Source: Amphiscolops sp. MND2022 | Lineage: Eukaryota | Assembly: GCA_964187785.1 (NCBI GenBank) | Contig: OZ076409.1 | Span: 39,062,001 to 39,126,000, forward strand | Direction of reading: 5' to 3' | DNA: 64,000 nucleotides | In this document: piece by piece, positions 13,901 to 40,900 of the stretch | Numbering within the stretch: position 1 is the first letter of the stretch | How the letters are laid out: every line of letters begins with the position of its first letter | Notes under the pieces: model-generated | Database searches by the model: none | Told to the model about the DNA's origin: nothing | Seen by the model: the letters and a program-made list of their open reading frames with translations, nothing else | Position numbers and translations under genes: made by a program

Positions 13901-16900
13901 AATATCTTCGGGCGGCTTGAAAAAGTCCAACACAACAAAATAATATCTAACTTTGAAAACAGTTTAGTCATTTTTATAAGAAATTCAAACTTTACGAAGA
14001 AAGGTTGAAGACTGGCTCAACAATTGAGGAATCTGGAAACTGAAAACAAGACGAGAACGTCTCAAGTCGGCGCTATATCTAAGGCTCAAAAAGCGCAAAA
14101 CATTTTTTGGAAAAAAACTTGAAATTTTCGAAATAAAAATTTCTTTCGGAAAATGTCGCACAGTGCCGAAAAATGTAAAAGGGGGACCCTTTTTGATTTA
14201 TAAACACGCATTCTGTTGCAAAATAACAAAAAACTCGAAGGGGGGACCCTTTGGGGACATTAAAAAATTTTTGAAAAAAAAGTCGCACAGTGCCGAAAAA
14301 TCCAAAGGGGGACCCTTGAGGCACGTCCGGTATTGTAGGTTACGTTAAAAAAGTAAAACTTGAAAGGGGGCACCCTTTGGACTAAGTTTGCAAGTTTGCC
14401 TGGGCCGGACTTAGCCTTAGTTGGTTTCAGGATTGTTTCTGAAAAGTGGACCGATCTGTGTAAGGATTGTAGTCTGAAGAAAAAAAGTCACTGCTATAGT
14501 CGGGCATTTTTCCTTAAAAAGATAAAGCGCCGACTGAAAACAGTTTGTTACATTGCTTTAATATGTTGTATTTAAAAAGTTTGGAGCCAAAATCCTTCAA
14601 AAACGTTTCTTCCAGCAACCCTTAGAGTTTCTTTCAGAATCTTGAGCTTTAAAACAGTAGATGTAATAACTGCTAGGTACTGAGATTTCAAAGTCGAAAC
14701 TGTTCACGGTACGCTTCTGCGATGGGAAGAAAGTAAGTGTTTCATTTTTTCAAAATTTTAATCAATTGATAAAAGCTAAAAGTAATTGGCGATCTTCAAC
14801 AAAGTTTCTTGGGTAAAAATTAAAAGACCAATGACAAAAGCTAACTAACACATAATTAAGACCATCTTCAGTGACGTGATCTCCAATAACATCCCCAGAG
14901 TCTCGATCGAAGTATGTTCTAATGTATGAACATACTCCCAGTTTACCGTACGCTCTACTCATACTATTAAGAGGGACAGGAGACGCTTCTGCTTCATTGA
15001 ATTTCTCAATGCACTTCTCGTGACCCTCCGCGCAGGAAAATGACCAGCAGATAGGACCTGAAAAATCCAGATTATATGAAGGAGGCAAAGCACGTTCGCA
15101 ATTATTACTAGCAAAAGGGAAAATATATATTTGCTTCATCACAATTTGGGTTTACAGAGACTTTAATTCATTCTCCTTCACGTTTCAGTTAATGGAAATC
15201 AGTTGACAGTCTTATACACGTCAAGTAAATTCATGTTGCGCGGACATAATTCAAACATCATGGACGTGCATCTGATATAGCCGACTACATCAAAATATCG
15301 ACTACATCAGTGTTAAGAGCGCTAAGATCTACAATTAAAATGGTTGATGCATTGTCAAATCTTTAACTGTAACTGATCAACTTTGAAACAACAATGGTTC
15401 ATCTATCGTAGGTATCACTAAGTATGACAATAAGGATATAACATGAATGGAGCAATTTAATTAGCACGTTTTGGACATTGTTTATCAACAACTCTGGTTG
15501 CTCATTTCCGTAATGGTCTGACTTTGGCATGTCACAAAACCCCCTCCAGGTAAAATGGCAATATGGGGTATTTGGTAAAAGTTTCGTATAATACGGTTGA
15601 CTCCGTAGTTGTTGGTTACTGTCCGTACATTACGGTTTTTTTCTCCACAATGCCCTTCTGCGGTCTGGTTTGGCTTTCCTGTGACAAATCATGGGTTACT
15701 TTTGTTTTCTTTTCGCTATTATTTCTATAGTATGGAACACCGCCTAATTTTTTGGTCTGTTTTGCAAATGGTAATCTCTTTGACTCTCTCATTAACATAT
15801 ATGGTTCAGTTGGTATTTGACCGTAACTTATACCAAGTTCGGGTGTAAAATTGGTTTACTTCGGATGGATTTGTAGTTCGTCTTCGACGTTGGCCTGGAC
15901 TTGCTTCCCTTCGGTTGTATTGTAACAATTGAAGTCATCACCCGAGATTACGTTTAGATGCTAGTCCATTGATTTTTCAGTGGCTTTTTCAGCGAACGTG
16001 AACTGTCTCTTTCCATTTCGTGGCTGTTTTCATTCGTCTCAGTCAGTCCCCGCTCCTGTCAGTTTTTACAGGTGTCGTCAGTTCGTCATTTCTGTAACCG
16101 CATGATACGGGGGCATCGATGGTTTTGGAACAGGGAGCTTTGGTCATTGGCTGTCATTTGCCTGGTGCTGATTCGTTTTGCCGGTGTTGAAATTTTCTGA
16201 AATGGTAATACGTAGAATATTATTTTCTGTGGAAAATTTCGGGTGGGCGGAAATAGGTCGAAGTAACGGGATCGAAAATCAGAGTTAGTCCTCAGGTCGA
16301 CATACTCTGATTTTTGAATGGGATCGAAACAACTCGGATCGAAATTTTTATAACGTAGTCAGATATGTTCACATACCCCTAGTGCCCTAAATGCAGGAGC
16401 GAAGCGAAGCGGAGCGACGTGCCATTATGGCCATGCCTCAATGTTGCTACTTGGCGAAGGGAGCGAAGCGACCGAGCCATACAACAAAAACGATTAAATT
16501 CGACCGCATTCCATTCGATCTCTGCAATTCGATCAAAAGGTTCGACCTCTGTCCTTTCGACCAGAAAAATTCGACCTATTTACAGCCACCCGAAAATTTC
16601 ATTTTTATCGGTGGTTACCGAGTGGTTGGTTCCCAAAACTGCTATTTGTGGTTTATTGTCGATATTACTGCCCAAGGAACTCTTTTTGTGAGCTTTTTTA
16701 AAAACAGTGAACGGGTAATTCTTTTTACTTACCGTACTGGGCGTCGTGGGCTCGATCCTCTCCGTCGCCATACTTTTTTGCAATAAGCGTGTCACGGAAC
16801 ATATCCCGGTGCTTAGAGGGCGTCTTGTTCTCTTTTTTTGTGTGATGTAGCGGATTATTCGGGTTTACTTTCTTCCTTTTCTTCTGAGCTTCCATCTTCC

Positions 16901-19900
16901 ATCTTTTTTGTTTTTCGGGTCGCTGTTATTTTGTTTGCTCCTGCATACTCGGCAAAATGTCGTATTTTCTGGCAGTTGCTGCATGTCTTTCTTTTGAATC
17001 TATGCTGGGGGTCCAGTTCTGTTGTCCGTAGAATCCGCGATCATTCTTTTTTTGCGTCATGTTTTCGCGGTTGTTCTTTTTGTACTTTGTTTTAGTGTAG
17101 TCTCGATTTTTTCTGGTTTATATTATCTGAATCGGTTCCTATTTGATTTTTTGTCTTTTACCCATGCAGGTGGTTTCGTGTATTGTTTATGCCGTCGGTC
17201 GTAGCTGTTTTCAGTAATTAAGTCTGTCGTTGTTTTGATATTCAGTGTTTTTTGCCTAGTAGTTTTTCCCGTAATTTGTCGTCGGTGATGCTGGTTCCGA
17301 ACTTTGATATCAGTAAGTCTTATTGTTCTATTTTTTTGAATTCGCAGTTCGTCTCCAGTGTCACTAACTTCTTCCAGTGTTCTTTTGGTGTTTCGTTTTC
17401 TTCTTGCTTTGCCGAGAAGAACTATCTTCGACTGTGGTATGTTTTCTCGTGGGCATATAATGTTACCGGATTAATTGTAGTAATTTGTCGGTTTGATTTT
17501 TTCGAGGTCCGTGTTGAACTCGCTTTTTGTGATCATTTTAATTGCTGACGGTCCGGCAGCCCAACTGATGTCTTGTCGGACTTCGGGTTCTTTCTCGTCC
17601 CATCATTCACCCATGGGTACTGTTTCTTCCGTTATTAATTTCTTAATGTCGACGTTATGGTTCCTTCTGAAGTATCTTGTAGATACGGTAGTTGAATGTT
17701 ATTCGCGGTTGTCATCATTGGTTGTTTTGTCTGTGAAGAGTTTTTTGTGGGATAAAGTTGGGATAAGGGTTTAAAATTGTATCTTGCTGATTGCGCCATG
17801 TTTAGAACGCTAAGATCTACATTTAAAACGGTTGATGCATTGTGAAAGTTTTACCTGAAATCATCAATTTTGTAACAACAATGGTTCATCTATTGTATGT
17901 ATCACTAAGTATGGCAGTTTGTGTATAACATAAATGGAGCAATCTAAGAAGCACGTATAAGAGTTTGTTTATCAACAACTCTGTGGTTGCTCGTTTCTGT
18001 AATGGCATGACCTTGGCATCTCACAGTCTGATGCACGCCTATTATTTATGCACGAAATGTGTCCGTGTGACATGAATATACTTGTCTGGTAAAAGACATT
18101 CAACTGATTTCCATTGAACGAAAGTGAAGGAGAATGATATATGCATCTGTATTTGTGTCAGAACGTGCAGACGTCTCCGAGTTAAGTACGTCTCTGTTGT
18201 TCTCTTCCCTACTATTCGATAATCTATCAGTAAGGGCTTTCACAATACTGGTAAGTTTTCCAATTTGGCGATTCATTTCCAAGAAACGTTCTTCAAATCT
18301 ATGATTTTCGTGGTCCCTCTTTATCTCTCTCATGTCATTTTCCGTCTCATTTTCCAAGACATTTTCACCGAAATGGTCAGCAACACTCATGTTATCTTCG
18401 TCGTCAGAATACCTACTAGTTCCAGATTGCTCGATTCTATTTTCTCTGTTAAACCTCGATCGAGTTTTAACCATGGTTGAAAAGTTATAGTTTTAAACGG
18501 TTTGAATTATGAATGGTAAATGTAAGAATCAGATTTTTGTAAAGTGCTTGTCAAGGTACGACTGGATTTTACAGTAGCAAAGTTCTCGTGTGTTGGATTT
18601 TCAAATTGTAGTAGCACCTTCAAACTTGTAATTACTCGTTAATTGCACTCGATTATTTGAGTCTTTTTCCAATTGGTTATTTTGGTTAACCTGCTGTTAG
18701 CACCTCATGGTACATTTTGTACGACTGGTCACTTCAGTCGTTGTTAATTACCACTTCGGTACTTTCACTCTATTATCACACCAGTATGCATCATTTACCT
18801 TGCAACTTCACAGCGCGTACAAGTGATTGAAGTGTTGAATGTAATTACTGCATTTGATCGTTGGTAATATTGCTCTAATTAGCACTAGGTACAAATGGAC
18901 GACTATTGATCGAAGTCGTTACTGGTAATTTCGCAAAGTATTGAATGAATGAGTATTTATGAACTAAACGATGTTAAATGACTATTGGTGAACTAAACGA
19001 TGCTCTAGTAATTGGACTATTGATGATTTAGATATAAAAAAACTGCATGTATGTTTAAGTAAAGGTACAACCGGATATGCCAGTCGTTTGTGTGAAAGTT
19101 TCATGTATTGCACATAAAGGTTGCTGAATTCGATTATCTGTTTTAGTCGTTATTGCTAAACAGGTGAAAGGAAAATATGTTCTTGTAAAATTTGTCGAAG
19201 CACACTGGTAATTTGTGACATTAGTGAAATTGGGGTGACGACTTCATAGTACAGTCGTCCATTATATGCGTCTACATGTGTTTGTGTTTTAAATGTTTCA
19301 GTCGGTTGTTGGAGACTTCATTCTTCAGTCGTTGTAATTCATACCAACCGGTATGACACTCCGCCTCTTTGAAAGAAAGTTGGCGGGAACTCCGAGTTAA
19401 TGCTGATTGGGAATCGTGATTGAGGATGGTTGGTTAGCTCGGTGGCTGGAAGGTTTGGATAGCAGGGGGCAGGTAGCTGTCGTTTGTATTCGATGAAACT
19501 TTTCGTCATGCAACGACTGCGGTTAGTAGTCGTCGTTGAATGGAAACAGCTATTGGTTTACCGTCGAGTAAGCGGAAGTAGCATTGGACTGTGACGTCAT
19601 GTGCATCTTGGTGTAGAAAAGTGGAAGTAGGTAGGGCTGAGTTGAATTCGGTATGCCACGTCATCCGGTCGTGCGCTTGATGAGAGAAAGTATTGTGTTA
19701 AGTAAATATTAAAGGAGCAATGGCCGCGGCAGTCGGCTCATACTCGGAAGAGTAAACACGTTTGATGCAGAGAGTCGTGCATTTCGTTTTGCGTTTCCGC
19801 TACTCGTGTTTGTGTAAACAAATCATAGCTGCAGCAGTTGGTAGTTTCGTGCTCAATTGTCGTTAGCATCAGTGCTGTTCAAACTTTTGTTGCTGTTCAA

Positions 19901-22900
19901 TACTGATAATCTCCGTTAATTCTTTGATTATCGTTTATTGATTGTTGATTGTTCCCATTATTTTTTCTTGCCCCTTCTTATCACTGTGTGTCTTCGAGGT
20001 TGGGATCGAATATGTTCTGGTCTGATAGGTTTTGTTCGATAAGGAAGGGAAAAAAACGACTGCTGTGATCAGAGGTAATTATTCTTTGTTGATATTTCCG
20101 TGGATTGATTTTTGCATTCAGAACCACCCATTGTGGTAACTTTTGACTATTAAGTAAGGCTAGTAATACAAAAAAATGTAGGTGATCAGGCCACATATTC
20201 GATTTCACCAGCACTGAATTGTTGAGTCGTCATTTGTCCCCTGTACTTAGTTTATTCCTATCGTCGCATGTCCGATCTGGGCGATTCCTCCTTAGATCCT
20301 GATTTGTGGTCGCTGGTATCCCTCGCCGAACAAAGTTATCAGGATCTTGAAGAAATGGCTTCGGGTATCGAGTCATTGTCAGAAGAAGCGTTGGCCACAG
20401 AAGCTGCGAATTTGGGTCTGCCTTGCTGTCAGTTCGCTGGGCGGGTGACTTCGTCATCCCTAGGGGGTATGAGCGAGTTGCTAGATTTTGCTCTATCTGA
20501 AAACTTCCGTGAGTACTCTTTTTTGTAACATTCTCGTCGTCACGTGTCAGTGACTACTTTCTTTTGCTCGAGTCTTTTTCTTCCATTTTTCCGGATTTGT
20601 GCATTAGGAGTATAGACACTGCATCATAGTGGTTCAGTCACTTCTAATTCTTTTGTGCGCTAATGTATTCTGGGGGTATCGTGATGAGATGGTTATTTCA
20701 TTGTTTTTTGCTTGGGTCGTAGGCGACGTAGATGTGTCGACCTTGCTGGAGTACGTTCGTGCTTTCCCGCAGAGGGGTGGTCAAGCAAGTGTGGCTCCTC
20801 CAAATGTCTTGGGCGAACAAGTGCACCAGTTGATGGAGTCTCAATTAGGTTAGTAGTGCGTTAGTTCTTCCGGTTTAACACTCCTGTAGTTTCGAGTAAC
20901 ATGTACGACCTTGGTGTGTCGTGTGTCGCCGTTGAAGTAGCGTCAGTTGGGTAGTGAATTAATCACTTTGCGATTATCTAGAATTTTGGGGTTGGTTTTA
21001 GGTGTCGAGGACTGTGCTGTCTTGTCCTTGGACGATCTTCTGGGTCGTGTAGAGGCCCGAATGGAGAAAAGCGTTCGGGAATTGACTAAAGCTATCCTGG
21101 AATCTTCTTTGGGAGAACTCGGGACTGTTGGAGTCCTTCGTGTCGACGAGTTCTGGCACACCTTCAAGACTGCGCTGCAAGAGGTCATCGGGAAGCAGCG
21201 TGTGGATGGGACGTCTCGGGGGTTCACTCCTTTCGTCGAGTTGTCTTCTGGGGAATTGGCTAGCCATGGTACCGCTCCTGGGCGCAGTGTCTCCGGGACT
21301 AGCTCTCATGTGCCGACTGTGTTCGGTGGTCCTGGTTCAATTGCTGCAGTTGTGGATCCGGTTGTCGGGACGTCCGCAGCTCCAAAACCTGGTAACTATT
21401 CTCAAGATCACATGCAATGTTGTACTAACTTGGGGGGTTAAGCTTAAGTGTTAAGACTATCTCTAATATCTTATCGTTTTGGAAGGTAGTGTAGGTACTA
21501 GTGTTGTTTTTCGCGTTTTTCTATGATAAGCAAAAGTAGTGATTGGGAGAGACAGGTCAGACACTTCCATTACATTCTTTGGGTGTGACTTTTGGTGTGT
21601 GTTTTTAGTGAGGAAGAAGAGGCTCAACACGCTGAAGCCATCCTATTTTGTGTCGAATGTGGTTGGGCTGTTTGTTGGCTTTCCGCGACACAAACGTGTC
21701 ATTGACGGGTTCGCGCGTTGCCTCATGTGTCGTGTGGACCTAAGTATCGCGGGTCGCGGCCTTCAGAATCTGTGGGGGCATTGGAAGGGTGCGGAACATA
21801 CCCGACTAGAGCAAAAGTTCCGCATCATGACGCAGCGTCCATTGTTGGACAAATCGTGTCGGCCCGTTTCTGCCGAAGAGGACAAGCGGATACGACTTGA
21901 TCGGATGGTGGAGCCTCCAGTCTATTTAGAGTCTCCAATCAGTTCGTCTCTGGAGGAGCGCGTGGCTCTTGAACGTGAAGTGGAAGATGAGGGTTCTCGG
22001 CCGGTCTTACCTGATGGAAGTGCTGCTTATCTGTGGTTGTGCTTCTTTTTGAACTGTTTTGGGGCAGTCACTGGATTTCAGTCGCTGATGCGTCTCATGG
22101 ATGGGTGGACTGGCAGTTTGCTAGGAGAGATGAACTTTGTAGCCCGAAGCCTTACCGTTCCGAAATGTCAGGTACCATAGCATTTTGTGTATGTTTTACG
22201 TGTGTTGCTGCTTTCTGGAGGGGGGGGTGTATTACTCTAGTTTTATGTATATGTTACATGTGCTAGGACTTGTATGTTACATGGTGTGGTGTGTGTTTGG
22301 CCGATGGATGGTCTATGTCGTTTTGTGTTGTTTAGAGCTTGTTGTTGTACGGGGTATACCCGTACATCATGGAGAAGATGGGCAGCCTCGTGCAAGCGGG
22401 CAATCAATTAGGGCTGCGAGTGTATTTCGATGGGAATTTCTGGCGGGTCGACTGTCATTTTGTGGACGACGTGGAATTGAGGACGGTGACCCTTGTGACA
22501 TGGCCTGTTTGCGCTCGCTGGAAAGAAGATCTGATTTGACTAGCTGTGACTGTATTGTCGTGTCTGGATCCGTTGCCTAGCCTCTGTAGTGTGGTAGTGG
22601 ACACTCACGTCGCTGTCAGTCGGTGGTCATTGGCTCATTTTGGACCTGCTGGCAAGTCCAATGTGATGCGTTTCTACGATGTGCAGTGGTTGCAGCGCAG
22701 CATCCGACAGCAGTTTCGGCAACGAATTGGAGGTCTCGATCCCTACAATGTTTTGGAGTTCCTCAAATATCGTCTGTCCAGCGTGGTCAATGGATCGGCC
22801 TTCGACAGAATGCCTTTGTTGCGTCAGGTACTTTCTTTTGGTATAGGTGCTGTAGGTGTGTAATATCTAAGGTGTATTAACTTTGTCTAGCGTGTGTGTA

Positions 22901-25900
22901 AACTAAACCTATGATTGTAGCAGTAGGACTAGGGTGTTCAGTCGTTTCCTGCTTTTCGTCTCATGTATCAAAATGCAGATGTCGTTTTTCTGTTTGCAGT
23001 ATGTGCGCAGTGACGACTTGACTCTACCGCAATTGGCTGCTGTGTGTGGGGAGCTTGTCGAACGATGGAACGATCTGGCTGTTTACTTCGGCAATGAAGG
23101 CAGTGGGTCTATGGTGGAGCTGAGATTGATTCCTAGTTTGAATGTCGTCATATTCAATGACCGTTTGGCTCGGCCACAGATGGCCATGTTGAGATGGTTG
23201 CTAGATGAAGGTGAGTATAAATCAAGAGGTTGCGGTTTTTTGTTATCCTTTCTCTCGCAGGTATATTTCTTTTTTGCGGCGATGTTCATTGAAATGGAAA
23301 GACTGTGAAGCAATTTGGTTGTGTCATCATCATTTTCATTTTTTTTGTAGGTTTTTTTTCGTTACGCGTGGGGGCTATTTAGAGTAAATCCGCAATGATG
23401 TCGGTTTGGTTTGTTTGTTTTAGTAGTGGCGTCCTTTCCTCGAGGGTGTACCTACAGCCGGGACCGTGACCTGTGCTTTGAAGTAGAGTTTGTTGCTTTC
23501 TTGCGACGCCTGAGGTGCATGGTCCAGGATGCTGACAAGGTTCCTGCTGCCTTCGACCACGAGCGCCTTCGGAGTACAAGGCCTATCGATCTTGGTACCG
23601 TTTCACAGGAGCGTTACAAGGCTTTGTTCGTGCAGTACTTCCGTTTTGACGTTCTCGACCAGCAGCGTGTTTTTTATCGCGAGCTTCAGTTGTTTCTAGC
23701 TAAGCTTTGTGAGGACCTTGTAGCTGATTATCAGTCAGACATCGCGGGGAGACTGAATCTGTCTGCTTTTGCTCCTGAGGCCATGTTTCGACGTTCGAAG
23801 GATCGGGTCGTGGATTCGCTGATGGATTGTTGCTTGCTGCTGACCCGTCTGGGTTTCCTTACTGACCTCCAAGGTGCAAAGGTCGTTCAGCAGTACGATG
23901 ATGTGTACAACTATTTCATGCATCGCTGGCGTTGTCAGTCGTCTTCCGGACCTGTTGTGGATGATGTGATAGACTTGTGGTGCTCATACCCTTTCTGGTC
24001 GCGCTGTGTTGATTTGCTGGCTGTTTTTAAAATTGTCGTCTGCTGTTCCGCTCGCAGCCAGTATGTTGCTGATTTCTTAGATGTCGGGGTCACTGCTCTC
24101 TCCCAAGGACAGTTGCTGTCCAGTATGAACTTGGTGCGGAGCTGGACGAGTGCTGGAGTGGTCGGCGGTGCGAGAAAATTAATGACCGGGTTCCTTCGTC
24201 ACTGTGAGACAACAGATATGCAAGTTTCGCGACTAACAGACCCAGAAAGAAGACGACCCTGGGATCAGCTGCTGAAAGTTGGAGTCGAAGACGTGTTGTC
24301 CCGGTGCTATCAGGTTTTCAATGAAGGAACTGTAGAGTCAGCAGGGATCTCCATGGACGACTACCGGTCAGCAGTGTGTGCACAGTTAAAGAGCAGTGCC
24401 GGCGATGCTAATGTTCAGTTGAAATGCCGTATTCGGAAACTTACGTCTCGTGGTTCTGTTGTTCCGTTTTCCGTCGACGATGATGAGCCGTTGATTCGAC
24501 ATGTCACTCGGGGTAAAGCACCCAAATCGCAAAAGGATGTCGGTTTGCCTTCTACCTCACGTGGCGGTAAAGGCAAGAAAACAACAGTGCGTGCCAAATC
24601 TAGTTCTACCAAGGCGTCTAAGAAGGTTGTAAAGCGGAATTTGTTAAAAGTCCTGATGAGTGAGTAGTCGGAGGAGTACTAGTGCGTTGGAGAGATAGTT
24701 TGTTTAACAAACTCGCTAAGACTACTTTTTTGAACTTCTGTAGTGCTTCTTTTTGTATTTGTAGTAATGTTATATGGTATTACATTGTTTTTTGATTTTT
24801 TCTTGAGCGCTGTATCATTGTTCTTCTTTCGCTGCTGATTTTTAATTTTTTCATGTTGATTGCTGATTTGGCTGTCATTGTTAGTCCCGGAACGGGTACA
24901 TTTGATTTTGTATTTTACTGGTTTGCATGCATTTTCGTTATTAATCTTGATTTGTGACAATTGTTGCATAGATTTTAGTTACATGGCTTGATACATCTTG
25001 CATGTGTCTCCCTTGTTTATCTCGTTGACACCGTAGCATTTAAGTGTGTCTAGAAAAAGAAATACAATTTTGACTTTGATTATTCTTTTGTCGCAGCTTA
25101 AAGTTTTGCATGTAGGATGTTGTTTCATGTGTATTACATGAGATCATTTATCTAAGTCGACGTCATCATCGTTGATGTGTGTCGTTATTTTTCTTGAGCT
25201 TTTGACTTGTTACGTTATGGTAATTGCTATGGTGAACGGAAGGTGGACTAAGGTCTTGATGTGTGTTTGTATTGGACAGCTAGTTTGTAAGTAGGACCGT
25301 GAACTCCTTAAGTTTTTTACTGAGGCGAGGCGAAGCCTACGCATTGTTGGTCTAATTTAAGGGGTCGAGCGTTCATTTTCGTCGTTTTGGTGAATACGAA
25401 TATTTACCTTTATGTCCATATTTTTTTCCCAGTTTATTGTTCGGTTTATTGTACGGTGAATTGCCGTCGCAACCACCCATTCAAAACTAACACTGAATCC
25501 AGTTGCTAAAGAGCAACCTTCATCTGTATGGTGACGACCAACCACACAAGCGCGCTTTTGAACGACGCACCCACACAGCCAGCACTATGATTTCAAAGTT
25601 AAATGAGTGGGGCTTCATTGCGTGGTCCTAACGTTAGCGAGGCAGCAGATCGTTCCTGTTAGTTCGTTGATCGTTTTGGGAACGTTATTTGCGTTCACGT
25701 TTCGTTAATTTCGCTGGGATCGTCTCGTATTTGGAGTATTTTACTCCAACTGTGGCTATGGTGATTTTGGCATGAATTGAATAAATTATCTCGCGTTAAT
25801 TCACATGGTACATGTATTTCCGCATCGTGCTTTTCGTGACGACTGGTGTCTGTGGTTGTTGCGTTTCCGTCCGTTCTTTATTAATGGCAGTTAGTGCTCA

Positions 25901-28900
25901 GTGTTTGCGCTGTTCAGGTAGTGTGAACTGAAATGAATGGTCGTTTTAATTGCTTTAGTTTGTTTGTTTTGAAATTCTAATTTGGAAGTGTTTGCTATTG
26001 AGTGGCTAGTGTTATTGTGTGTCGCAATTGTAAAACAATTGACTGCACGATCTAGGCTCATAACTGCCATGACTGCTATTAGCAGTCGTTAGTGATGTCT
26101 TCAATTTTGATTAAGTTAAAATAAAAAAAAATTAATGGAATTTCATGTTTGGTGTGCTACAGAAAATCATTGTTTGTTGTGTAGTGTAGCACGTTTGCGT
26201 AAAATGTTCTCATGATTTTCAGTTGGAGTGGTTGTTTTGCAACAATTTTCGTACTACAGGTTTTACTTGGAGTTCGTGAACGAGGAAGTCTCGATAGGTC
26301 TTCAGTGTAGGTTGCGCCCGTAGGTTGTAACGGGTAGTGTTATTGCGCGACGTTACCGGGGCTTCGTCGTTGTTGTGTGGCAGCTCGTTCTGGTGGGTTG
26401 CAGGTTGATCGGGTTCGGCCCGATTTTCGTCGTTTAGATGAGTACTGACAACAGGGTCGTCAGTCGGTGGCACGAATGTTTGAGGAGAGTTTTCAGGTAT
26501 AGGTTGTGCCATTTGTCGGTCTGGTGACCTTTGAGCTTGTTCATAGTATATGATACCATGTTCAGTGTCGAGTTCTTCAGGAGGCGGCAGTGCGGGCGTT
26601 CGCTCAAAATGGATCGTCTGAGGTACATGGTCGTTAAATAGATCCTGGTCGTCGAACGCTTCTGGGTCGGCATAGAAGAGATTTGGATCTTCTTCGATGT
26701 CGTGTATGGGTGCGTTCGGGATGAAAGGTCGTAAACGCATCCTATGAACGCACTGTGTACGGGAAGTGCCAATTTTTCTCACTATGTAGTTGAAGTTAGT
26801 TAAGACTTTTACTACTTTAAAAGGGCCTTCCCATTTAAAATGGTTGAATGCAATTTTGTCGGACTGGTCAGTGATTTTCGGGTTGAGAAGGAAAACGAAG
26901 TCATTAACCTTTAAAGGTGATGCCTGGGCTTCACGGTCGTAATACCTTTTGTACTTGTGGTAAGCTTGGAGTATGTTGTCGTTTACTTGTTTGTACTTTT
27001 CGTTCACTTGGTCAATCAATTTCGTCAAATCAGCATCTTGTGTGCGGCATTGCAGGGGGTTGCTCAATTTAAGGTCTAAGGCGTTGAACGGGACTCTACC
27101 ATGAAACACTTCGCTCGGAGTACACTTAAGTGATTGGTGGTAGGTCGTGTTATGAGCCATAACCGCTAAGTTAACGTACTTGTCCCATTGCGGAGAGTCA
27201 GCTGCAACATTGATTTTCAATATTTGTTTTAGCTTTTGGTGGGAACGTTCAACCTATCCTATGGTCTGTGCATGTTTTACAGTTGCGTGTTCGATTTGAA
27301 TTCCGGCAGTTTTCATTAGTTCGGTCATGATGCTGAATGTGAATGCCGTGCCTTTGTCAGTGATGATGGTCTTGGGTACGTAGGCGTGACGGGTAACGAT
27401 TTGCAACAGTGCATTGACTACTGATTTTGTGTCTGGTTTGCGGATCGGGATCGCGAACAGATAGCGCGAGAAGTAATCGCACGCCGTCAGGATTTGCGTA
27501 TATCCATTTGAGCAGGGCAGTTCGCCTACTAGATCAATTTCGAGTATGTCTTCAGGACCGTTGCAAGGGTCGTAGATTTTTTCAAGCGGTGGGATTAGGT
27601 GTTTTGGGTTAACAGGTTTAGCTTTTAGACAGTCTGTGCAGTTACTAACAAATTTTGAAACGTGTTCACTAAGGTTAGGTATGTAATAACGCTTGCGGAG
27701 TTCTACCAACATTTTGTTGTTTGCCTCAGGGTGTCCCTGCATGGGGTCGCCATGCATCGTCCTGATTATGGGCAACGTAGTTTCTGGAGGTACTACAATT
27801 TGTTTAAATAGAACTCTACCAGTGTTATCAAAAAACTTCCTGTACAAGGCCTTGTTGACTACTTCAAGACGTTCTCTGTTTTTTACTAGTTTTTGGAAGA
27901 AAGTACTGGCAAAGTTTACGTGGTTAGGGAAGGGTTCGTCGTTAACTAAGACTCTTATCATTTTTTGAACGTCTTGGTTACTTAGTTGTGCTTGGATTAT
28001 TTGTGAATCCCCTTGCGGGCATACCTGGTTTACCGTGTTTACCGCTGTTTTCGGGTGAACTTCGTCAGCGTGATTGAGGGGGTTCCGTTTGCCAACACTG
28101 GTTCGAGGTGACGACTGATGATCTGGATCATTCTGGTACGGTCGTCGTCGTGTTGGTCTCGGGTGTTCGCGAGGGAATGCAGTAGTGATTGCATTTGGTT
28201 GAGGGCGTCATGGGTGTTGGTTGTTTCAGGTTTGTCCTGCTCCGGGGTGTCAGCTGGTGTATTGTGCTGTGGTTGATCAGGGTCGTAGTCTTCTTCATTG
28301 TCATCCTGCTTCGGGGTTTTTGCTGCTAAGTCAATCTCGATGTAATGGACGGGGATCTGGTCGTTCAATTTCAGGTGGATCCTATCCTCAGGGTTAATGT
28401 CTAGCCTGGACAGGTAGTCAGCAGCTGGGTTTTCCACACCTGGCACGTGGGCTAGTACGAAGTCAAATTGCAGTGCTTGGTCGCAATGATTCCACAATTT
28501 CGGTGGGATTCGCTTTGACTGGAAGAAGCGGGTCAGCGCTTTGTTGTCTGTCATCACGATGGTGGGCTTCTTGACTCCCCACAAAATGTGGGCGAACTCA
28601 TCGAAGGCGAAATGCATGGCCAGAAACTCCTTCGCATACATAGTCAGTGACATTTGGCCTTCAGTGAATCGTTGGGACCCAAAAGCAACAGGTGCGTACG
28701 TCTTCTTCTTGTCGTCGTTGCTTTCAGTGTAATCCTCGATAAGCAACACGTACCCTGCTGCATGTTCGCTGGCGTCACACATGATGACGAGTTGCTTGTC
28801 GGGTAGTGGTAGTCGAAGTGACAGTTTCGCAGCTCGTGCTAGTATTTCGTTGATGTCGAAAATTGCGTCCTTGTGTACCTGCGTCATTGCGAACTTGACA

Positions 28901-31900
28901 TCTTTTTGCAGTAGCTTGTACAGTGGGACGAGCTTCTCAGCCACTTTCGGGATGTATTGCCTGTAGAATTGCACAAATCCAATGTAACGTTGAAGTGATT
29001 TGACTGATGTTGGTAGTTTGAGTTTTTTGAGGAATATGTCAATCCGGTCTGCAAGGGGTGCGATGCCTTTGGTTGTTATGCTTCGTCCCAGGAATTCGAC
29101 TTTCGGATGTCCGAAGGCGCACTTTGACATCGAGAGTTTCAGTCCTGCCTTCTGTATCTGCTGGAACACTGCTTCGATGTTGGCAACCAGTTCGTCCACG
29201 TTGTGTGCAGCGACTCCAATGTCGTCAACGTATTGTGCACATTTGTCTGCTTTTACTAGTGCATCAAGATACTCTCGGATTGTGCTGTTGAATGCTGACA
29301 GTGATTTGTTCAATCCTTGAGCAAGACGAAGGTATGCAAAGGTCCTGCTGCCAAAATTAAATGCAAGAAGCTGGATTGACTGTTCGTCGGCCATCTGGAG
29401 ACAGTGGTAAGCTTGTGAACAGTCGAGCTTACAAAAGTACTTCTTGCCAGCCATGTGTTGAGCGGCGTCTGCTATCGTCCTGACCGGGTGATTGTGTTGG
29501 TTGTAGTCGTTCTTGAGGAGGTGGTTGATACGTCTCAAGTCGACTAGTATTCGCAATTTTCCATTGGGTTTCCGCTGTGCAAATATCGGGGACGAGTATT
29601 TGCTGTATGGAAGTGTGGTGATGATGCCGTATTCTTGCATCAGAGCCAGTTCGACAAGGAGGTCGTCTTTCAGGTTAGTCGAGGTTGGTAGGCTCTGTGC
29701 GTACACCGGATCATTATGCTTGGGTGTCAGGTTGATTTTGAAATCCGTGTTGATGCCTATATCAAGGCGGTGACGTGCAAAAATCGTTGTGTATTTGACC
29801 AACAGTGCTTCAATCCTTTGTTGTTCCTGTTCGATGAGGATTGAGTCGTCCCAGTTGAAATTCTTCAGGAACGCTCGTCGTTGGTCGTCGTCACGTGTGG
29901 GGTCGAGTTTCTCGGCTTCTCGGAGTTGAATGATTTCGTCGTAAATCCGGCGTTCGATTTTATTCAGTTTATCAGGGTCGTCACATGTATCGGGTGTTGG
30001 GTACCATCGTTTGTCCTTGTTTGTATCTGGTTCCTGGAACAACTGGTTGATCACGTTGTTGGCCTCGTCTGGAAACTTCGAAATGAGGGTCAGTTGCTCG
30101 TTTGTCATTGGTTGGACGTTCTTTGCTTGGTTTGGGGTTAAAATGCGAAAGACTGCAACTGTTGTGTGTTGGGGTATTGTTATTGTGTGGTCCAAGTAAT
30201 TGGTGATTTGGACATGGCTCTGCTGGTCGTTTATTTCGGACATCGATGGGGATACCAGCAATTCCGTCTTTCGTTCGAATGCCGGGAACGCTTCCACCGT
30301 GCCTGTTACATGGCCGATGTCTTTTTCTGCTACCACTGGGATGAAGACTTGTTGTCGCGGTGGTATGGTTGTCTTCTGTGATGTACTGAGTTCCAACATT
30401 TGCAATTTGAACTTCCCATTTTGTGGTCTCAACTGAAGGGTGATTTCTGGGAATCTGACAATATTGTTTGCGAGGTCTAGTGTTACCGATTAATTTTTGA
30501 AAAATGACATTCCGATCAAAATGTTTCTCATTGTCGGCAAAATCATAAATGTTTCTTCGAATACTTTTCCTCCGATAAAGAATCGAAGGAAAACTTGTTT
30601 CCGGACTGGGACTATACTTCCATTGGCAATTTGTACTTTGAAGTCCGGGGTATTCTTCAAGTTGGGCTGCTGGGTGGGCTTGCAATATCCGGCGTAGTTC
30701 ATTTTCCGACATTGCACTTTTGATAGCACCTGTGTCTAGTAGCCCTTGGTTTTCATATGCTCTGATCTGAATTGGAGGGGGACGTAGAGCATTTTGTTTC
30801 TCTTGTCTAGCTGTAATGTTGCACTGAGGGGTTTGATAGTAGTTGGTTTAATGTTATTTGACGACTTCGGTTGTGATGGGTTGTTTTTATGACTTGTTTT
30901 CGTCTGAGTAGTCCGTGTGTTGGGTGGTGAGTCCTTTGCAGTACAGTCCTTTGTTGTACACGTAGGGTCATCTCCAACTAATGGGAGTATGTGGTAGTTG
31001 TTGGGTGATACCTTGTGTACGTAGTATTTTTTGGAGTGTTGAGGCCGATTGCCAGAATGCTGCCGACATTCCGACGTCTGAGTCTTCGAGTCATAGTTGT
31101 GGTTAGTTTGAGGTTGTTTGCGCGCACTGGTAGTCTGGTTGTGTTGAGGATGACGTGGCTTTACAAGTTTTTTGAATTCTGGTTGAATTCTTTGTTGTAA
31201 TCCTCGTCATAACAGTCATTATGTACTTCGGTCTGGGTGGTCTCACTTGTTGCTTGTGATATCTGGTATTGTGGTTGTTGCGTGGGTTTTGGGATTGTCG
31301 GAAATCTCGTCGGAACTCACGATTCTCCATTATGGACTGTTTTTGATAAGGTACATTCTGGTATGCTGATGCACCTGGGACTCGGTTTCTGCAATCTCGT
31401 GCAGAGTGTCCAACTTTGCCGCAGATTTGGCACACTAGCTTCGAGTTGTAGCGGGGTTTGTCAGTCTGAGGCTGCTGGTTGTTGTTGTCCTGTTGGGTGC
31501 GTTGGTAAGTTTTTGTGTTGATTCCGTTTGCTTCGTCTCGGAGGCGTTTTCGGCAGTCAATCCACTTGTGTCCAACAATGTTGCAGTATCTACAGTTGCC
31601 TTCGAATTTTCGTTTGACCCCATGTTGGCTGTTGGTTTCCCCGGAGTGCTGGTGGTAGCTGTTTGTTGGTTGGTTTGCTGCTTCGCGGGGTAATTCTGGA
31701 TGTTGTTCAGAGGTTGCATCCCTGCAGGGGTGGGTAGCAGTTGTGCATATTGGCAACGTCTTTGTACAAAAGTCTTAATTTCCTCGCTGGTTGCGTCGTG
31801 TTTTCCTGCCATTGCCAAATCATTCTGGATTTGTATGGGTAATTTGGCAAACAGGAATGTTTCAACTATGTCATTGGCTTTGTCACCATACGCCTGTTTT

Positions 31901-34900
31901 GCTAATTTTTTGAATTTCGTTAGAAAATCGGCAAATGACTCCGTTGTTGGGTCGTACCTCATTTGATCGAATTTGTACTTCGATACTTCTTTGAGGTCTT
32001 CTTTGGCGTATTCCTTGCTGAATGCCTGGAGGATTTCGGTGAGTGTTGTTTCGGTCGTTATCTTCAGAGTTTGCCAGAAGTCGATGGTGTCATCTCTGAG
32101 GAGGCTTTCGAAGTAATTCAATTTCTGCTCGTCCGTCAGTTTGTGCATATGTGGCCGGAGATGATTTTTGAGTAAGTGTTCGAACTCATTGTACTTCTCT
32201 CGGTTGCCACGGAATAGAGGGACTTGTGTTTGGAGTATTTTGGGCTAGATCACTCCATCGGTCATTGTTGTTCTGAGGTGCTGTATCTCGGACATGACTT
32301 CTCCCATTTGTGGATCAAGTAAGGAATGTGGAGTCCTTCTTGGTGGTTGCGTGTTGGGTGTAGGTGGTGGGTTCGCCAGGACTCCTGTCACAGAACGAAA
32401 CGTGAAGGAGAATGATATATGCATCTGTATTTGTGTCAGAACGTGCAGACGTCTCCGAGTTAAGTACGTCTCTGTTGTTCTCTTCCCTACTATTCAATAA
32501 TCTATCAGTAAGGGCTTTCACAATACTGGTAAGTTCTCCAATTTGGCGATTCATTTCCAAGAAACGTTGTTCAAATCTATGATTTTCGTGGTCCCTCTCT
32601 ATCTCTCTCATGTCATTTTCCGTCTCATTTTCCAAGACATTTTCACCGAAATGGTCAGCAACACTCATGTTATCTTCGTCGTCAGAATACCTACTAGTTC
32701 CAGATTGCTCGATTCTATTTTCTCTGTTAAACCTCGATCGAGTATTAACCATGGTTGAAAAGTTATAGTTTTAAACGGTTTGAATTATGAATGGTAAATG
32801 TAAGAATCAGATTTTTGTAAAGTGCTTGTCAAGGTACGACTGGATTTTACAGTAGCAAAGTTCTCGTGTGTTGGATTTTCAAATTGTAGTAGCACCTTCA
32901 AACTTGTAATTACTCGTTAATTGCACTCGATTATTTGAGTCTCTTTCCAATTGGTTATTTTGGTTAACCTGCTGTTAGCACCTCATGGTACATTTTGTAC
33001 GACTGGTCACTTCAGTCGTTGTTAATTACCACTTCGGTACTTTCACTCTATTATCACACCAGTATGCATCATTTACCTTGCAACTTCACAGCGCGTACAA
33101 GTGATTGAAGTGTTGAATGTAATTACTGCATTTGATCGTTGGTAATATTGCTCTAATTAGCACTAGGTACAAATGGACGACTATTGATCGAAGTCGTTAC
33201 TGGTAATTTCGCAAAGTTTTGAATGAATGAGTATTTATGAACTAAACGATGCTAAATGACTATTGGTGAACTAAACGATGCTCTAGTAATTGGACTATTG
33301 ATGATTTAGATATGAAAAAACTGCATGTATGTTTAAGTAAAGGTACAACCGGATATGCCAGTCGTTTGTGTAAAAGTTTCATGTATTGCACATAAAGGTT
33401 GCTGAATTCGATTATCTGTTTTAGTCGTTATTGCTAAACAGGTGAAAGGAAAATATGTTCTTGTAAAAATTGTCGAAGCACACTGGTAATTTGTGACATT
33501 GGTGAAATTGGGGTGACGACTTCATAGTACAGTCGTCCATTATATGCGTCTACATGTGTTTGTGTTTTAAATGTTTCAGTCGGTTGGTGGAGACTTCATT
33601 CTTCAGTCGTTGTAATTCATACCAACCGGTATGACAATTTGGATATTTGAAGTACAGCATTTTTTTAAATAAACGTAAACTCAAAAGATCTTTGATAGAA
33701 GGCGCATGATTCCCATGAAACCACTTTGATGGACAAAACAGACGGCAAGTTGAAACTTTGAATGAGTTTGAGAAAAAATCACAACAAAAGGTCCGAGAAG
33801 CTGTAGGATATTTTCGCCCCAATTATTTCAGCAACAATTATTCAAAAATCTTTTCAAGCTGGAGCAAAATTAGACTTGATAAAAAAAGTTTACCTATCTT
33901 CGTGTGCTACGAGCTTTACTTTTTGTCGTTCAGTTTTTTGTGTGTAAAGAGGAGGGTTATATCAAACCTTTCTTATTTTCCCACACTAAAATGTTGGAGA
34001 GAAAAATATAAACAGTTTCGGAATTGCTTACCACGAGAAATGGATATTTCGAGGGCATCGCTTTCAATGGTACCCTCTCCAGTAGCATGGTAAGTTGCGC
34101 CATCAAAAAATACTCTGGTCAGAGACAGATTGTACAAGTTTTCTTTATTGGGTATCAAGTTGGTCACCTCAGTGCCGTAGTAGTTAATAACGGACTGGTA
34201 GTTGTTGAAATTCTCAGGTCCATCCATATCAGGGAGACCGAAATCTTGCAACGATTTTGTTGTAGGACACGTTGGTTCCCTTTCATCCAACCAAGAGACT
34301 TCGATCCATGGTCTGAAAGTTTCGGGTCTTATAGCATCGTAAGTGACGTTCAATGAATCCTTGGTAATGGCTGGAGGTTCTGAAAAACGCCAAGCAATGC
34401 GTAACCATTCAATGCAATCAAGTTGATAATGCATACTGAATGAATTTCTTCAAAATACGGCTTACATAAATTTGAAATTTGTTGGGAAGCAATGATTTCA
34501 TGATCCTATTTATAGAAATGGGTAACAAGACGCCCGCTGAGGAGCGGGATATTTTCCGCCCCGAACTGTTCTACAACTACATTTTCGTCATTTTCGTCAT
34601 TTTTTAAAAAAACTTCAAAAATCTCTACAAATACATATCACACGAAGCTAAATTTATGTGGGTTGAATTCTATGGGTAACACCCTTAAATTTAAATATAA
34701 ATAAAATCTTGGCAAATTTTGTAAAAAAAAAAAAACCCGTTTGATTTAAATATTTTCCTTTCCCATATGAAATATGGGCGGAAAATAAAAACTATATGAA
34801 TTCGAATCCGGGTAACGATAATGCCTGTTATTCTTATGCATATTTCTAGAAAATTCTATACAGTTTAGATTTAAAGACTTCTGTTTTGGGCTAACTTAGG

Positions 34901-37900: not shown

Positions 37901-40900
37901 GACTTAATAGTACCCTAGTCCAAAAAAATGCGTATCTTGCAAGATTCTTAGATTTTTATCTTTAAAGAAAATGCATTTTTCTTCAAGACATCTTGCAAGA
38001 ATCTTGCAAGATAAACATTTTTTCAATGATAATCTTGCAAGATATACATTTTCCCGAAGAATCTTGAAAGAATTGAATTTTCAAATCAAAAGTATTCATG
38101 GAATTAAGGGATCCGATTTATAAAGACACTCTCCATTACAGCCAGAGTCTCACTTCTAAAATTGTGAAGGACCCAAAAATGCAAACTCTAGAAAAAATAA
38201 AACTCTAGAAGTGTGATTTTAGTAATGCGCCCTGAAAGCCAAATTTTTGCAATAAAAAACTGATATTTGAAACTCAGTTTTGATGAAGTACATTGGAAAA
38301 CAAATGACCCTCTATCACGTACACGATGGAGACTTCGAAATCAAGCCGAACGAACCTAAATTGATGATAGGCGTACATTTTTTGGAAAAAAACGCAAAAA
38401 CAAGAGAAAAATAATCTTTTTTCGACAATTGGTGAAGCTGTTGACTACGTTATCATAACTCATTTGTTGTCTTGCAAGATTTGCATTGTCTTGCAAGATT
38501 CTTGCAAGACTGGTATTCTAGTTTATCATCTTGCAAGATTTGCATTGTCAGATATTTGCAGCAAAATGTTTTTCTTTCAAGAATCTTGTAAGATATCTTG
38601 TAAGATTTGCATACTTCTGAAAAATCTTGCAAGATTTGAATTTAGGTCCACAATCTTGCAAGATAGCCATCAAATGCAAGATATTGGCAAGAATCTTTAA
38701 AGATTTGCATTTAACTTCATCCAGGGTAACAACCAATCAAATTGAAGATTTTTATAGGTCTAACTGCAACTGAAACTCATCGCTGATAGTGGTGGGGAAT
38801 TAAAATTTCCGCGCTTACAGTGAATTAACAGAAAACATCCTCCTCATGTTTGGTGCGTGTTAATCTTTTATGTCAATCTCCCGCCAATGACATCCCCCCT
38901 CCCAATTAGGCGGTCAAGTGAATTTATCGTTGAGTTGATAGAATCAACCAGTCGTGTCAATTATATGCGGCAAAAAACTGTAAAATATGCAATACTTTAT
39001 GCGGATAATTTCTTCAAAATATGCGCTGAAATAAGCGGTGAAATGCTGCTGTTTGCTCAACAAAGAACGATCCAAATAGTTGAGAAAAAAACTGAAATAT
39101 AACATCATAAGATGTACAAGTTTTTCCTCAGTCAGTTGTTTCCGCTCTTCGGGAAGTAGCAGAAAAACAGTTCACCAGAGGCTGAGGCGCAAACAAGAAA
39201 AACAGTTCGGCCTTTGGGACACGCTCAAAACCTGGTATACCAAGTATATAGCGGGCGAGAATTAACAAAAAAGATCATTTTATTTTGTAGTTTTGCAGTT
39301 CATTCGTTTGAAAGAACATCGCAATGGAAATTGTTTAAGTGAACAATAGAGTAGAGCAAATTTGTAGAGCTTACCATTTTGCCCATTAGTGAGGGGTGGA
39401 CGCAGGGATGTAAAAATATATTATATTTAAATATATTGATAACAAATAACTAAAATTAACTTCTTTTTAGTTTTATACAAAACAATATATATTTGTTTTT
39501 TGATCCAATGTATTTGTGTTTTGGGCCAAAATGTTTTAATATTCATTTTAATTTTGGCAAATATTAAAACATAAGTGAAATTTTGATTTTTTTACGCGGA
39601 ATACGCGAAACTATTCATTTCTTAGGCCAACTGTTATTAAATATTTGGATTTATTTAAGTACTAGTCGTGTGGGAAAACCATTTCAGTAAGCTTCGTCTA
39701 TTTATTGATGGTAATAAAAGAGTTCAAGAAGTGTACAAACGAAATGTTTGTTCGAACAATATATTTTTCCCTCGAAATTTCGGACAAAATTTTCAATATA
39801 CTTATTGGTACAATGCTCAAGGTAACACAGAAAGAAAGGTCTGACTGAATCTAGGAAAACTCGTCGAAAACAACTTGTCAAAAACAACTCGCCGAAAACA
39901 ACTGGTCGAAAATACTAGACGGAAAATTCGTCGAAAAGCAACTCACCGGAAATGCTCTGGCAGAAAACTCGTCGCCAGAGCAGAAATTATTCTCAGACAA
40001 ATATAGCGCTAACTTAGTGATCGTAATTTGTCATCAAGTTCAAACGCATCAATTAAGGAAAATTAATCCATAAATCCCTGTTTGTAATCTGTGATTATTC
40101 GACGAGTTTGTTGCACTCAATTATTATTCGATTAGTTAATTTTCGACCAATTTTCCATCCTTTAATTTCGACGAGTTGTTTTCGACGAGTTTCATTCGGC
40201 GAGTTGTTTTTGACGAGTTTTCCGCATACCGATCTGACTGCTCACTGTTGCTCTTTTTATTTTGCTTCCTCTGCCGAATGTGTTATTTTTATAGGGCGCT
40301 TCATGAAAAGGAACGCGACTATTACAGTGACACTTTTTTTCAATCCACACGAACTTACCAAAAAAGTTCTACAAAGTTCTACGAAATTTTATGGCGTCAA
40401 ATTGATGTAACGATAAGCGCCGGCGCTTGAACCGTAACATAGAGTGGAGGAACTAGAACAGCGAATATAATCTGGGACTTAGATCTCCGCGGCCCTAGCT
40501 CATTTAACCTCCGAAGGAGCCAGTCCCAAGGTGGGGGAACAGTCTTGTAAGAAACTCTCTGGCCTGGTCCCAGTCTGTAACTGCTAAAAGTAACAGGCAT
40601 CTTGCATAACTCAAGACCACTGCTCAACTAGCCTTTAAAAAGAGGGCTGAAAACAAGAGGAGGTTGAGCCATAGTATTGGAGAATCTGATAAAATCGACA
40701 TATCCAAATAGGTAAATATAGATGTTCAAGGGCAGCTCTCGAGCATCTCAATCTACATCAAAGAGAAATACAACAAAACTAACAGTTTGAGTCATTTTGG
40801 TAGAAATTGATCTTGGCTCCCAGCGCTAACGCTCGTCACCACACAGAACACTGCAAGGATACTCAGGCGAACATCTGGAACACGGGTTTCCGGTACTATA

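Follow-up and report, generated by a model that had tools for sequence, protein, structure and literature searches.

An antisense gene with six introns in a Gypsy element

How can a gene interrupted by six introns persist in an element that copies itself through RNA? The question is raised by a 64,000-nucleotide stretch of the Amphiscolops sp. MND2022 genome (GenBank assembly GCA_964187785.1, contig OZ076409.1, positions 39,062,001 to 39,126,000; hereafter, the window). Here, a Ty3/Gypsy retrotransposon on the minus strand carries a plus-strand cassette (20268–24682), antisense to gag-pol, between the polypurine tract (PPT) and the end of pol. An original prediction, made from the letters of the window, took this cassette for an integral, hAT-transposase-like gene that keeps its introns by its orientation. 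Comparison with other copies and families indicates that the cassette is almost certainly an old, integral, spliced gene of a Gypsy clade.

The cassette consists of seven exons and six GT..AG introns of 153–217 nucleotides (nt), whose phases match so that the exons form a single frame (Table 1). The introns and their phases are as predicted, but the eight open reading frames (ORFs) from which the gene had been assembled resolve into seven exons. The product had been put at ~1088 codons with one premature TGA; that endpoint is a stop private to the window copy (24665–24667, 1/27 copies), as is the stop at codon 508 (1/27 copies). The full product is 1093 codons long and ends at a stop (24680–24682) common to 27/27 copies, so that the window copy has two private stops.

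GC content is 0.52 in exons and 0.39 in introns. The GC and AT skews of exons (0.16 and -0.18) and introns (0.30 and -0.36) match those of pol (0.20 and -0.28) and are unlike those of the flanks, in keeping with the strand skew noted originally. The reported absence of terminal inverted repeats (TIRs) and of an 8-bp duplication of the target site around the cassette was also borne out. Inverted matches between its two sides do not exceed 10 nt (the best flank match is 10 nt, E ~1). In the copies, the cassette flanks are continuous element sequence.

The cassette keeps its position across copies and families

A DNA search with positions 20000–25000 as the query gave 202 candidates, and the best 29 scored yielded 28 distinct other elements of 90–97% identity. 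As predicted for a gene that always sits in the LTR family at one position, 28/28 of these close copies are flanked by a long terminal repeat (LTR) and/or the pol end (LTR in 26, pol end in 24, both in 22). Protein searches led to more families, whose exon 7 is 78%, 57%, 47%, and 38–43% identical. Exon 4 gave 3395 first-look candidates (best 150 scored), and a variant of it from the database protein P0093 gave 4074.

The diverged families keep the antisense placement. In two of them (L031 and L032) the cassette was read directly as antisense to integrase. A convergent, opposite-strand integrase match lies within 20 kb of 58/93, 15/21, and 21/26 diverged matches, among the integrase matches listed (the best 150, biased toward the query), compared with a chance of ~0.001 per locus. 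Of the integrase matches listed, none lies near a diverged cassette match on the same strand, and the convergent spacing is mostly uniform. A further locus, L033, has nested insertions inside, and four sibling loci adjoin listed integrase matches. P0093 also gave access to a far clade, whose best genome matches are 43–51% identical (best of 4074). The single far-clade locus examined, L044, has the same layout, with exon 4 26% and integrase 59% identical, and in most of the best 150 loci the far-clade exon 5 aligns along almost its full 162 codons. Because P0093 is at most ~51% identical to its best matches in this genome (best candidates scored), the cassette is probably present in another genome too.

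These observations bear directly on whether the cassette is a simple nested DNA transposon, or a passive passenger that does nothing for the retroelement. DNA transposons and MITE-like repeats (MITE: miniature inverted-repeat transposable element) do insert into these elements, and L034, one diverged locus, could not be linked to pol. However, position and spacing are fixed across families down to 26% identity, TIRs are lacking, the strand skew is held in common with pol, and the cassette is under strong purifying selection (see below). The copies examined include neither siblings without the cassette nor cassettes with TIRs of their own. We regard the nested-transposon reading as largely refuted on this evidence, and a passenger of either kind as highly improbable.

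Purifying selection acts on the reading frame and the splice sites

Across 351 pairwise comparisons among 27 copies, the ratio of nonsynonymous to synonymous substitution rates (dN/dS) was 0.28 (0.48 for the closest pairs and 0.23 between subfamilies), and control frames gave 1.28, 1.60, 1.07, 1.54, and 0.40. Variants present in at least 3 copies comprised 153 synonymous and 62 nonsynonymous changes, compared with 232 and 451, respectively, among private variants, a ratio expected from decay after insertion. Apart from the shared terminal stop, no stop is common to more than two of the 27 copies; one exon indel (3 nt) is shared by several copies, versus 34 shared intron indels. Copies free of stops and frameshifts number 4/27. 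Between the window copy and L031, dN/dS was 0.02–0.12 per exon (six exons tested).

The six predicted junctions are conserved at the DNA level. Splice dinucleotides were retained in 322/324 cells across the 27 copies, compared with 3761/4472 cells (84%) for a control set made up of 172 other GT/AG sites within the introns; the probability that 12 control sites would all match the splice sites by chance is ~6e-4, a rough figure because the copies are related. Splice sites are canonical at 12/12 positions in L031, 5/5 located positions in L044, and 22/24 checked positions in L032–L034, the misses being an acceptor of L032 and another of L034. The expectation that introns are kept in the antisense orientation also held, since no intronless copy was found among the 27. 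Introns 1–5 align over 80% in 27/27 copies and intron 6 does so in 21/27, the remaining copies having an intron 6 rich in small indels. Based on these substitution patterns, both the reading frame and the splice sites of the cassette are under purifying selection, and we infer that its transcript is spliced.

Compared with L031, the introns are 55–73% identical overall and synonymous sites 25–41%. The introns may be constrained, or alignment of T-rich sequence may inflate their identity to L031.

A conserved zinc finger and the probable ancestry of the protein

The CxxC..H finger that had been proposed for the cassette is present in exon 4 and conserved, with the second C in 27/31 and the last H in 25/31 exon-4 homologs. 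A search of 1.8 billion proteins with exon 4 gave 96 matches, of which 31 were examined; 30/31 were cassette exons. The remaining one (E 4e-8) has repeated fingers, which we take, from our own reading of its sequence, to be of the BED type. When the exon-4 profile was compared with 1829 sequences, some real and some shuffled, first place went to the finger of L038, a host hAT transposase (E 0.007; z 12 in a further comparison). One of the host hATs is a confirmed relative of Hermes. The genome is rich in hAT transposase genes of several kinds (L035–L043 and L046), some with long open frames.

Beyond the finger, exon 5 of L031 matched MULE and ZSWIM RNase H-like clusters (0.94–0.92) in Atlas, a language-model search, with 10/10 best family matches within one clan; by the tool's own figures these matches are at the level of a lead. 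With hhalign, the first 55 residues of exon 5 align in register with the opening strands of the core of hATs, but without significance (probability 0.1%). The model of exon 7 is helical (predicted local distance difference test score, pLDDT, 67), and fold searches with it, in which residues 210–271 are under pLDDT 50, listed no transposase. By eye, the order of finger, alpha/beta core, and helical region resembles that of hAT and MULE transposases. Pfam gave nothing significant for the window exons or for 42, 31, and 33 homologs (exons 7, 4, and 5, respectively); Dimer_Tnp_hAT (PF05699) was found in 0/42 exon-7 homologs, the MULE domain (PF10551) in 0/33 exon-5 homologs, and the TRP28 domain (PF04195) in none of the exons and homologs. 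These comparisons make descent of the protein from a DDE transposase probable; a hAT origin, as opposed to MULE or another line, is possible, although we lean slightly away from it. Of the hAT-like gene originally predicted, the finger alone gives a sequence signal toward hAT/ZBED proteins, and its BED-like character is weakly supported; exons 5–7 have no significant hAT match.

Several results count against an integral, selected gene of transposase descent. The finger signal came from 1 of 9 host hATs, and Pfam zf-BED was found in 3/31 exon-4 homologs with a best E of 0.026, below the cut-off. Exons 5, 6, and 7 have no significant match in Pfam, in sequence profiles of the PDB, or in profile comparison with the nine host hAT proteins. 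The top Atlas match shares 154 features, where true family members typically share 170; MULE is present on just 12% of the top Atlas cluster, and 4–10% of shuffled proteins reach 0.9. One of the five control frames (antiparallel) also has a low dN/dS, 0.40. Among the matches listed, 35/93 diverged exon-4 matches lack an integrase, and L034 has no pol within 4.6 kb downstream, a stretch that holds nested repeats. Finally, between the window copy and L031 the synonymous divergence (dS) of the cassette is 1.2 to saturated and that of integrase 0.32, so that cassette and integrase have not always travelled together or the integrase codons are constrained; the difference suggests module exchange between lineages.

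If the gene had been captured from the host rather than directly from a DNA transposon, its source being either a ZBED-like gene that was itself domesticated or some unrelated zinc-finger gene, the transposase likeness beyond the finger would be a matter of chance. This origin is favored by the lack of a significant transposase match for exons 5–7, by the gene-like character of six short introns, and by the repeated fingers of the sole remote match of exon 4 (among the 31 examined). The Atlas signal, however, is toward MULE/RNase H-like cores, and no single-copy host relative was recognized among the genome matches listed (best 101–150, repeat-filled). We consider capture from the host unlikely.

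Acidic residues at possible catalytic positions

Several acids are conserved among the nearer families. Position 32 of exon 5 is D in 23/27 ungapped rows, and hhalign pairs it with the catalytic Asp that comes first in host hATs. Positions 88–89 of exon 5 are acidic (position 89 is D/E in 29/33 rows), and exon 7 positions 216 and 219 are D in 34/42 and 39/42 rows. In an alternative register set by eye, the corresponding residue is exon 5 position 28, which has no Asp (H 15, R 8). At the place of the C/DxxH motif, also assigned by eye, the cassette has D-x-x-W, with Trp for His in 31/33 rows; in Hermes and Muta1 that His is essential (PMC5225508). The second and third acidic sites are, by eye, missing from L044.

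An integral gene of the same ancestry could instead have a metal-binding RNase H-type site and act as a nuclease, a strand-transfer helper, or an integrase partner that steers insertion. That the nearer families conserve acids at three plausible positions fits such a site, but the register on the hAT Asp is not significant, the alternative register lacks the first Asp, Trp occupies the expected His position, and the far family is without the second and third acids. On balance, this version is quite unlikely. Transposase activity of the cassette protein is likewise unlikely, and a non-catalytic protein is plausible, with some doubt left by the acids conserved at those three places.

Conserved non-coding sequence around the gene

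Downstream of the gene, positions 25450–25600 are identical at 143/151 sites in L031 and 136/151 in L032, compared with 84% and 45% identity, respectively, for exon 7. Among close copies, the whole block (25450–25720) is half as diverse as its neighbors, and its skew is reversed. This block contains no ORF, Rfam match, or unusual fold, and it was not found in L033 or L044; as a putative cis element it is unexplained. A second conserved non-coding stretch (25294–25377) is retained at 62/84 sites in L031 and L032 and partly in L033, and by eye it could form a hairpin. The short motif beyond the block (Table 1) may serve the antisense mRNA as its poly(A) signal, or it may be a site where protein binds. 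Upstream of the gene, the leader is still 75% identical in L031 over ~740 nt although synonymous sites are near saturation.

A proposed mechanism for intron retention

The explanation that we find best overall, and reasonably probable, is that the cassette is a domesticated accessory gene derived from a DDE transposase, encoding a nuclear DNA-binding protein that does not transpose. A DDE transposase gene of the hAT/MULE line would have entered an ancestral Gypsy element backwards and then lost its own ends. Transcription would start from an antisense promoter in or beside the 3' LTR, a placement suggested by the precedents of maize Grande gene23, which has its own antisense promoter, and of human T-cell leukemia virus (HTLV), likewise antisense-driven (PMC7264820). 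The antisense transcript would be spliced and end near the motif at 25763–25790. The genomic RNA that is packaged and reverse-transcribed is of the opposite strand, on which the introns are unseen by the spliceosome and copied intact; the introns would survive because reverse transcription copies that other strand.

Lacking TIRs, the gene would spread only with the retroelement, and the selection acting on it would therefore mean that it benefits the element. Its protein would act on the DNA of its own family, keeping transcription going or shielding the element from silencing. The finger exon is the most conserved, the other exons diverge faster than integrase, and the C-terminal tail is basic, a combination in keeping with a nuclear regulator that binds DNA and is specific to its family, or with an anti-silencing factor of that kind; we give such a role about an even chance. 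A fuller scenario, in which an abundant Gypsy clade tamed a transposase of the hAT/MULE line that binds the clade's own DNA (perhaps at the downstream block or motif) and lifts silencing or steers integration, possibly with its active site retained, is put forward tentatively and is on the doubtful side.

If this fuller scenario is true, a class II transposase has been domesticated by a class I element, its introns frozen by orientation, and the cassette would be a cause of the clade's expansion. Where the antisense accessory ORFs of LTR retrotransposons come from and what they do are stated open questions, and a 2020 review called for a search for antisense and spliced transcripts (both PMC7264820). 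The two exon-4 variants, with their 3395 and 4074 first-look candidates, offer a large natural series carrying a selected six-intron gene with transposase-like traits, in which three ideas become testable: intron retention by orientation, domestication across transposon classes, and element-encoded counter-silencing. Standard annotation misses the cassette because its exons are short and have no Pfam match.

The host element and other features of the window

Membership of the host element in Ty3/Gypsy is indicated by its two LTRs, its PPT, and the gag, reverse transcriptase (RT), RNase H, and integrase domains that Pfam found in Gypsy order. The LTR pair (18116–19358 and 32393–33636) is 98.9% identical, and gag-pol of this copy is disrupted. 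No target-site duplication (TSD) of the whole element was found in the window copy, the left end of which is disturbed: the left LTR lacks the final 7 nt of the right LTR, and another repeat abuts there. This repeat (15168–18137), which has direct and inverted copies and ~20 nt in common with the LTR end, may account for the missing LTR end and TSD.

Table 1. Features of the Gypsy element and its antisense gene in the window
Feature	Coordinates	Strand	Remarks
3' LTR	18116..19358	-	Outer end without 7 nt seen at other LTR
PPT adjoining 3' LTR	19359..19370	-	Sequence reading
Leader/promoter region of antisense gene (inferred)	19371..20267	+	~740 nt at 75% identity in L031
Exon 1, acidic N-terminus	20268..20508	+	ATG in 25/27 copies; dN/dS 0.10 vs L031
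Intron 1, GT-AG, phase 1	20509..20722	+	
Exon 2	20723..20848	+	dN/dS 0.06 vs L031
Intron 2, phase 1	20849..21001	+	
Exon 3	21002..21391	+	dN/dS 0.12
Intron 3, phase 1	21392..21608	+	
Exon 4, BED-like CxxC..H zinc finger, best-conserved exon	21609..22171	+	
Intron 4, phase 0	22172..22335	+	
Exon 5, putative RNase H-like core	22336..22827	+	Private stop at codon 508 in this copy
Intron 5, phase 0	22828..22999	+	
Exon 6	23000..23210	+	dN/dS 0.035
Intron 6, phase 1	23211..23423	+	
Exon 7, all-helical region and basic tail	23424..24682	+	Stops 24665-24667 private, 24680-24682 shared
Strongly conserved non-coding block	25450..25720		
Short motif	25763..25790	+	Retained in five families; AATAAA in 3/5
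pol (RT, RNase H, integrase)	26219..30847	-	Stops and frameshifts break this copy
gag with zinc knuckles, two frames	31103..32244	-	
Candidate primer binding site	32361..32378	-	Begins TGG, 7 nt inside LTR end
5' LTR	32386..33636	-	

Two of the diverged loci contain MITE-like repeats with terminal inverted similarity, placed within the initial part of the cassette and downstream of the cassette (L033:1660–2464 and the nested repeats of L034). The window itself holds a second LTR element on the minus strand (40405–59763), with LTRs of ~750 nt (98%), pieces of RT and integrase, a tandem duplication of 753 nt (42836–44339), and an extra sense ORF of 932 amino acids (43605–46403) that has no Pfam match. 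By eye, this ORF may resemble SGNH/GDSL-like proteins, and the long integrase tail may resemble a macro-like domain.

Comparison with known systems

With the hAT (Hermes, Ac group) and MULE (Muta1) transposases the cassette would share a finger that may be BED-like, followed by a candidate RNase H-like core and a stretch of helices. The cassette differs from them in that it lacks TIRs and a Pfam hAT or MULE match and moves only inside a retroelement; its C/DxxH His is apparently Trp, and a DDE triad is not demonstrable. VANC proteins, the anti-silencing proteins of Arabidopsis VANDAL transposons, are a possible functional analogue, as element-encoded, family-specific, fast-diverging DNA-binding proteins. 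The likeness would be one of function, and VANC is encoded by DNA transposons.

HBZ of HTLV-1, which is spliced, is comparable as an antisense gene that starts from the 3' end and encodes a nuclear regulator. It differs in being a small bZIP protein that is not transposase-like, and it has far fewer introns. HBZ is one of the retroviral antisense genes (PMC11963269; PMC7264820).

Among animal Gypsy-like elements with foreign genes, LTR elements of bdelloid rotifers carry an extra ORF3 encoding a GDSL esterase or DEDDy exonuclease (PMC5408684), and planarian Burro is a Gypsy-like element with extra genes (PMC6431247). The accessible parts of these two papers describe no antisense, intron-bearing, or transposase gene, and those of PMC13524379, PMC9911081, and PMC8220671 contain nothing comparable. 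In the literature searched, Repbase and most subscription papers aside, no LTR element is reported to carry an antisense gene that has many introns and derives from a transposase.

The closest parallels are the antisense additional ORFs (aORFs) of plant Retand/Tat elements (TRP28, PF04195 "Transposase 28"), maize Grande gene23, rice RIRE2, and fungal Boty (PMC11963269; PMC7264820). These aORFs, which have been proposed as nuclear or DNA-binding regulators (PMC11963269; PMC7264820), are antisense, lie between pol and the 3' LTR, occur in most copies, and are conserved, all of which was found here. Retand differs in its TRP28 domain, as the cassette has no PF04195 match. The cassette has ~1093 codons in seven exons, and the word "intron" is absent from the accessible text of the Retand paper (PMC11963269). 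In the 2020 review, the origin of aORFs is given as unknown, with no similarity to other transposable elements and no support for a nested-element origin (PMC7264820), and unlike the aORFs treated there the cassette has transposase-like traits. An antisense accessory ORF between pol and the 3' LTR is thus a known arrangement; what appears to be new in this Gypsy clade is the combination of six conserved introns with transposase-like traits.

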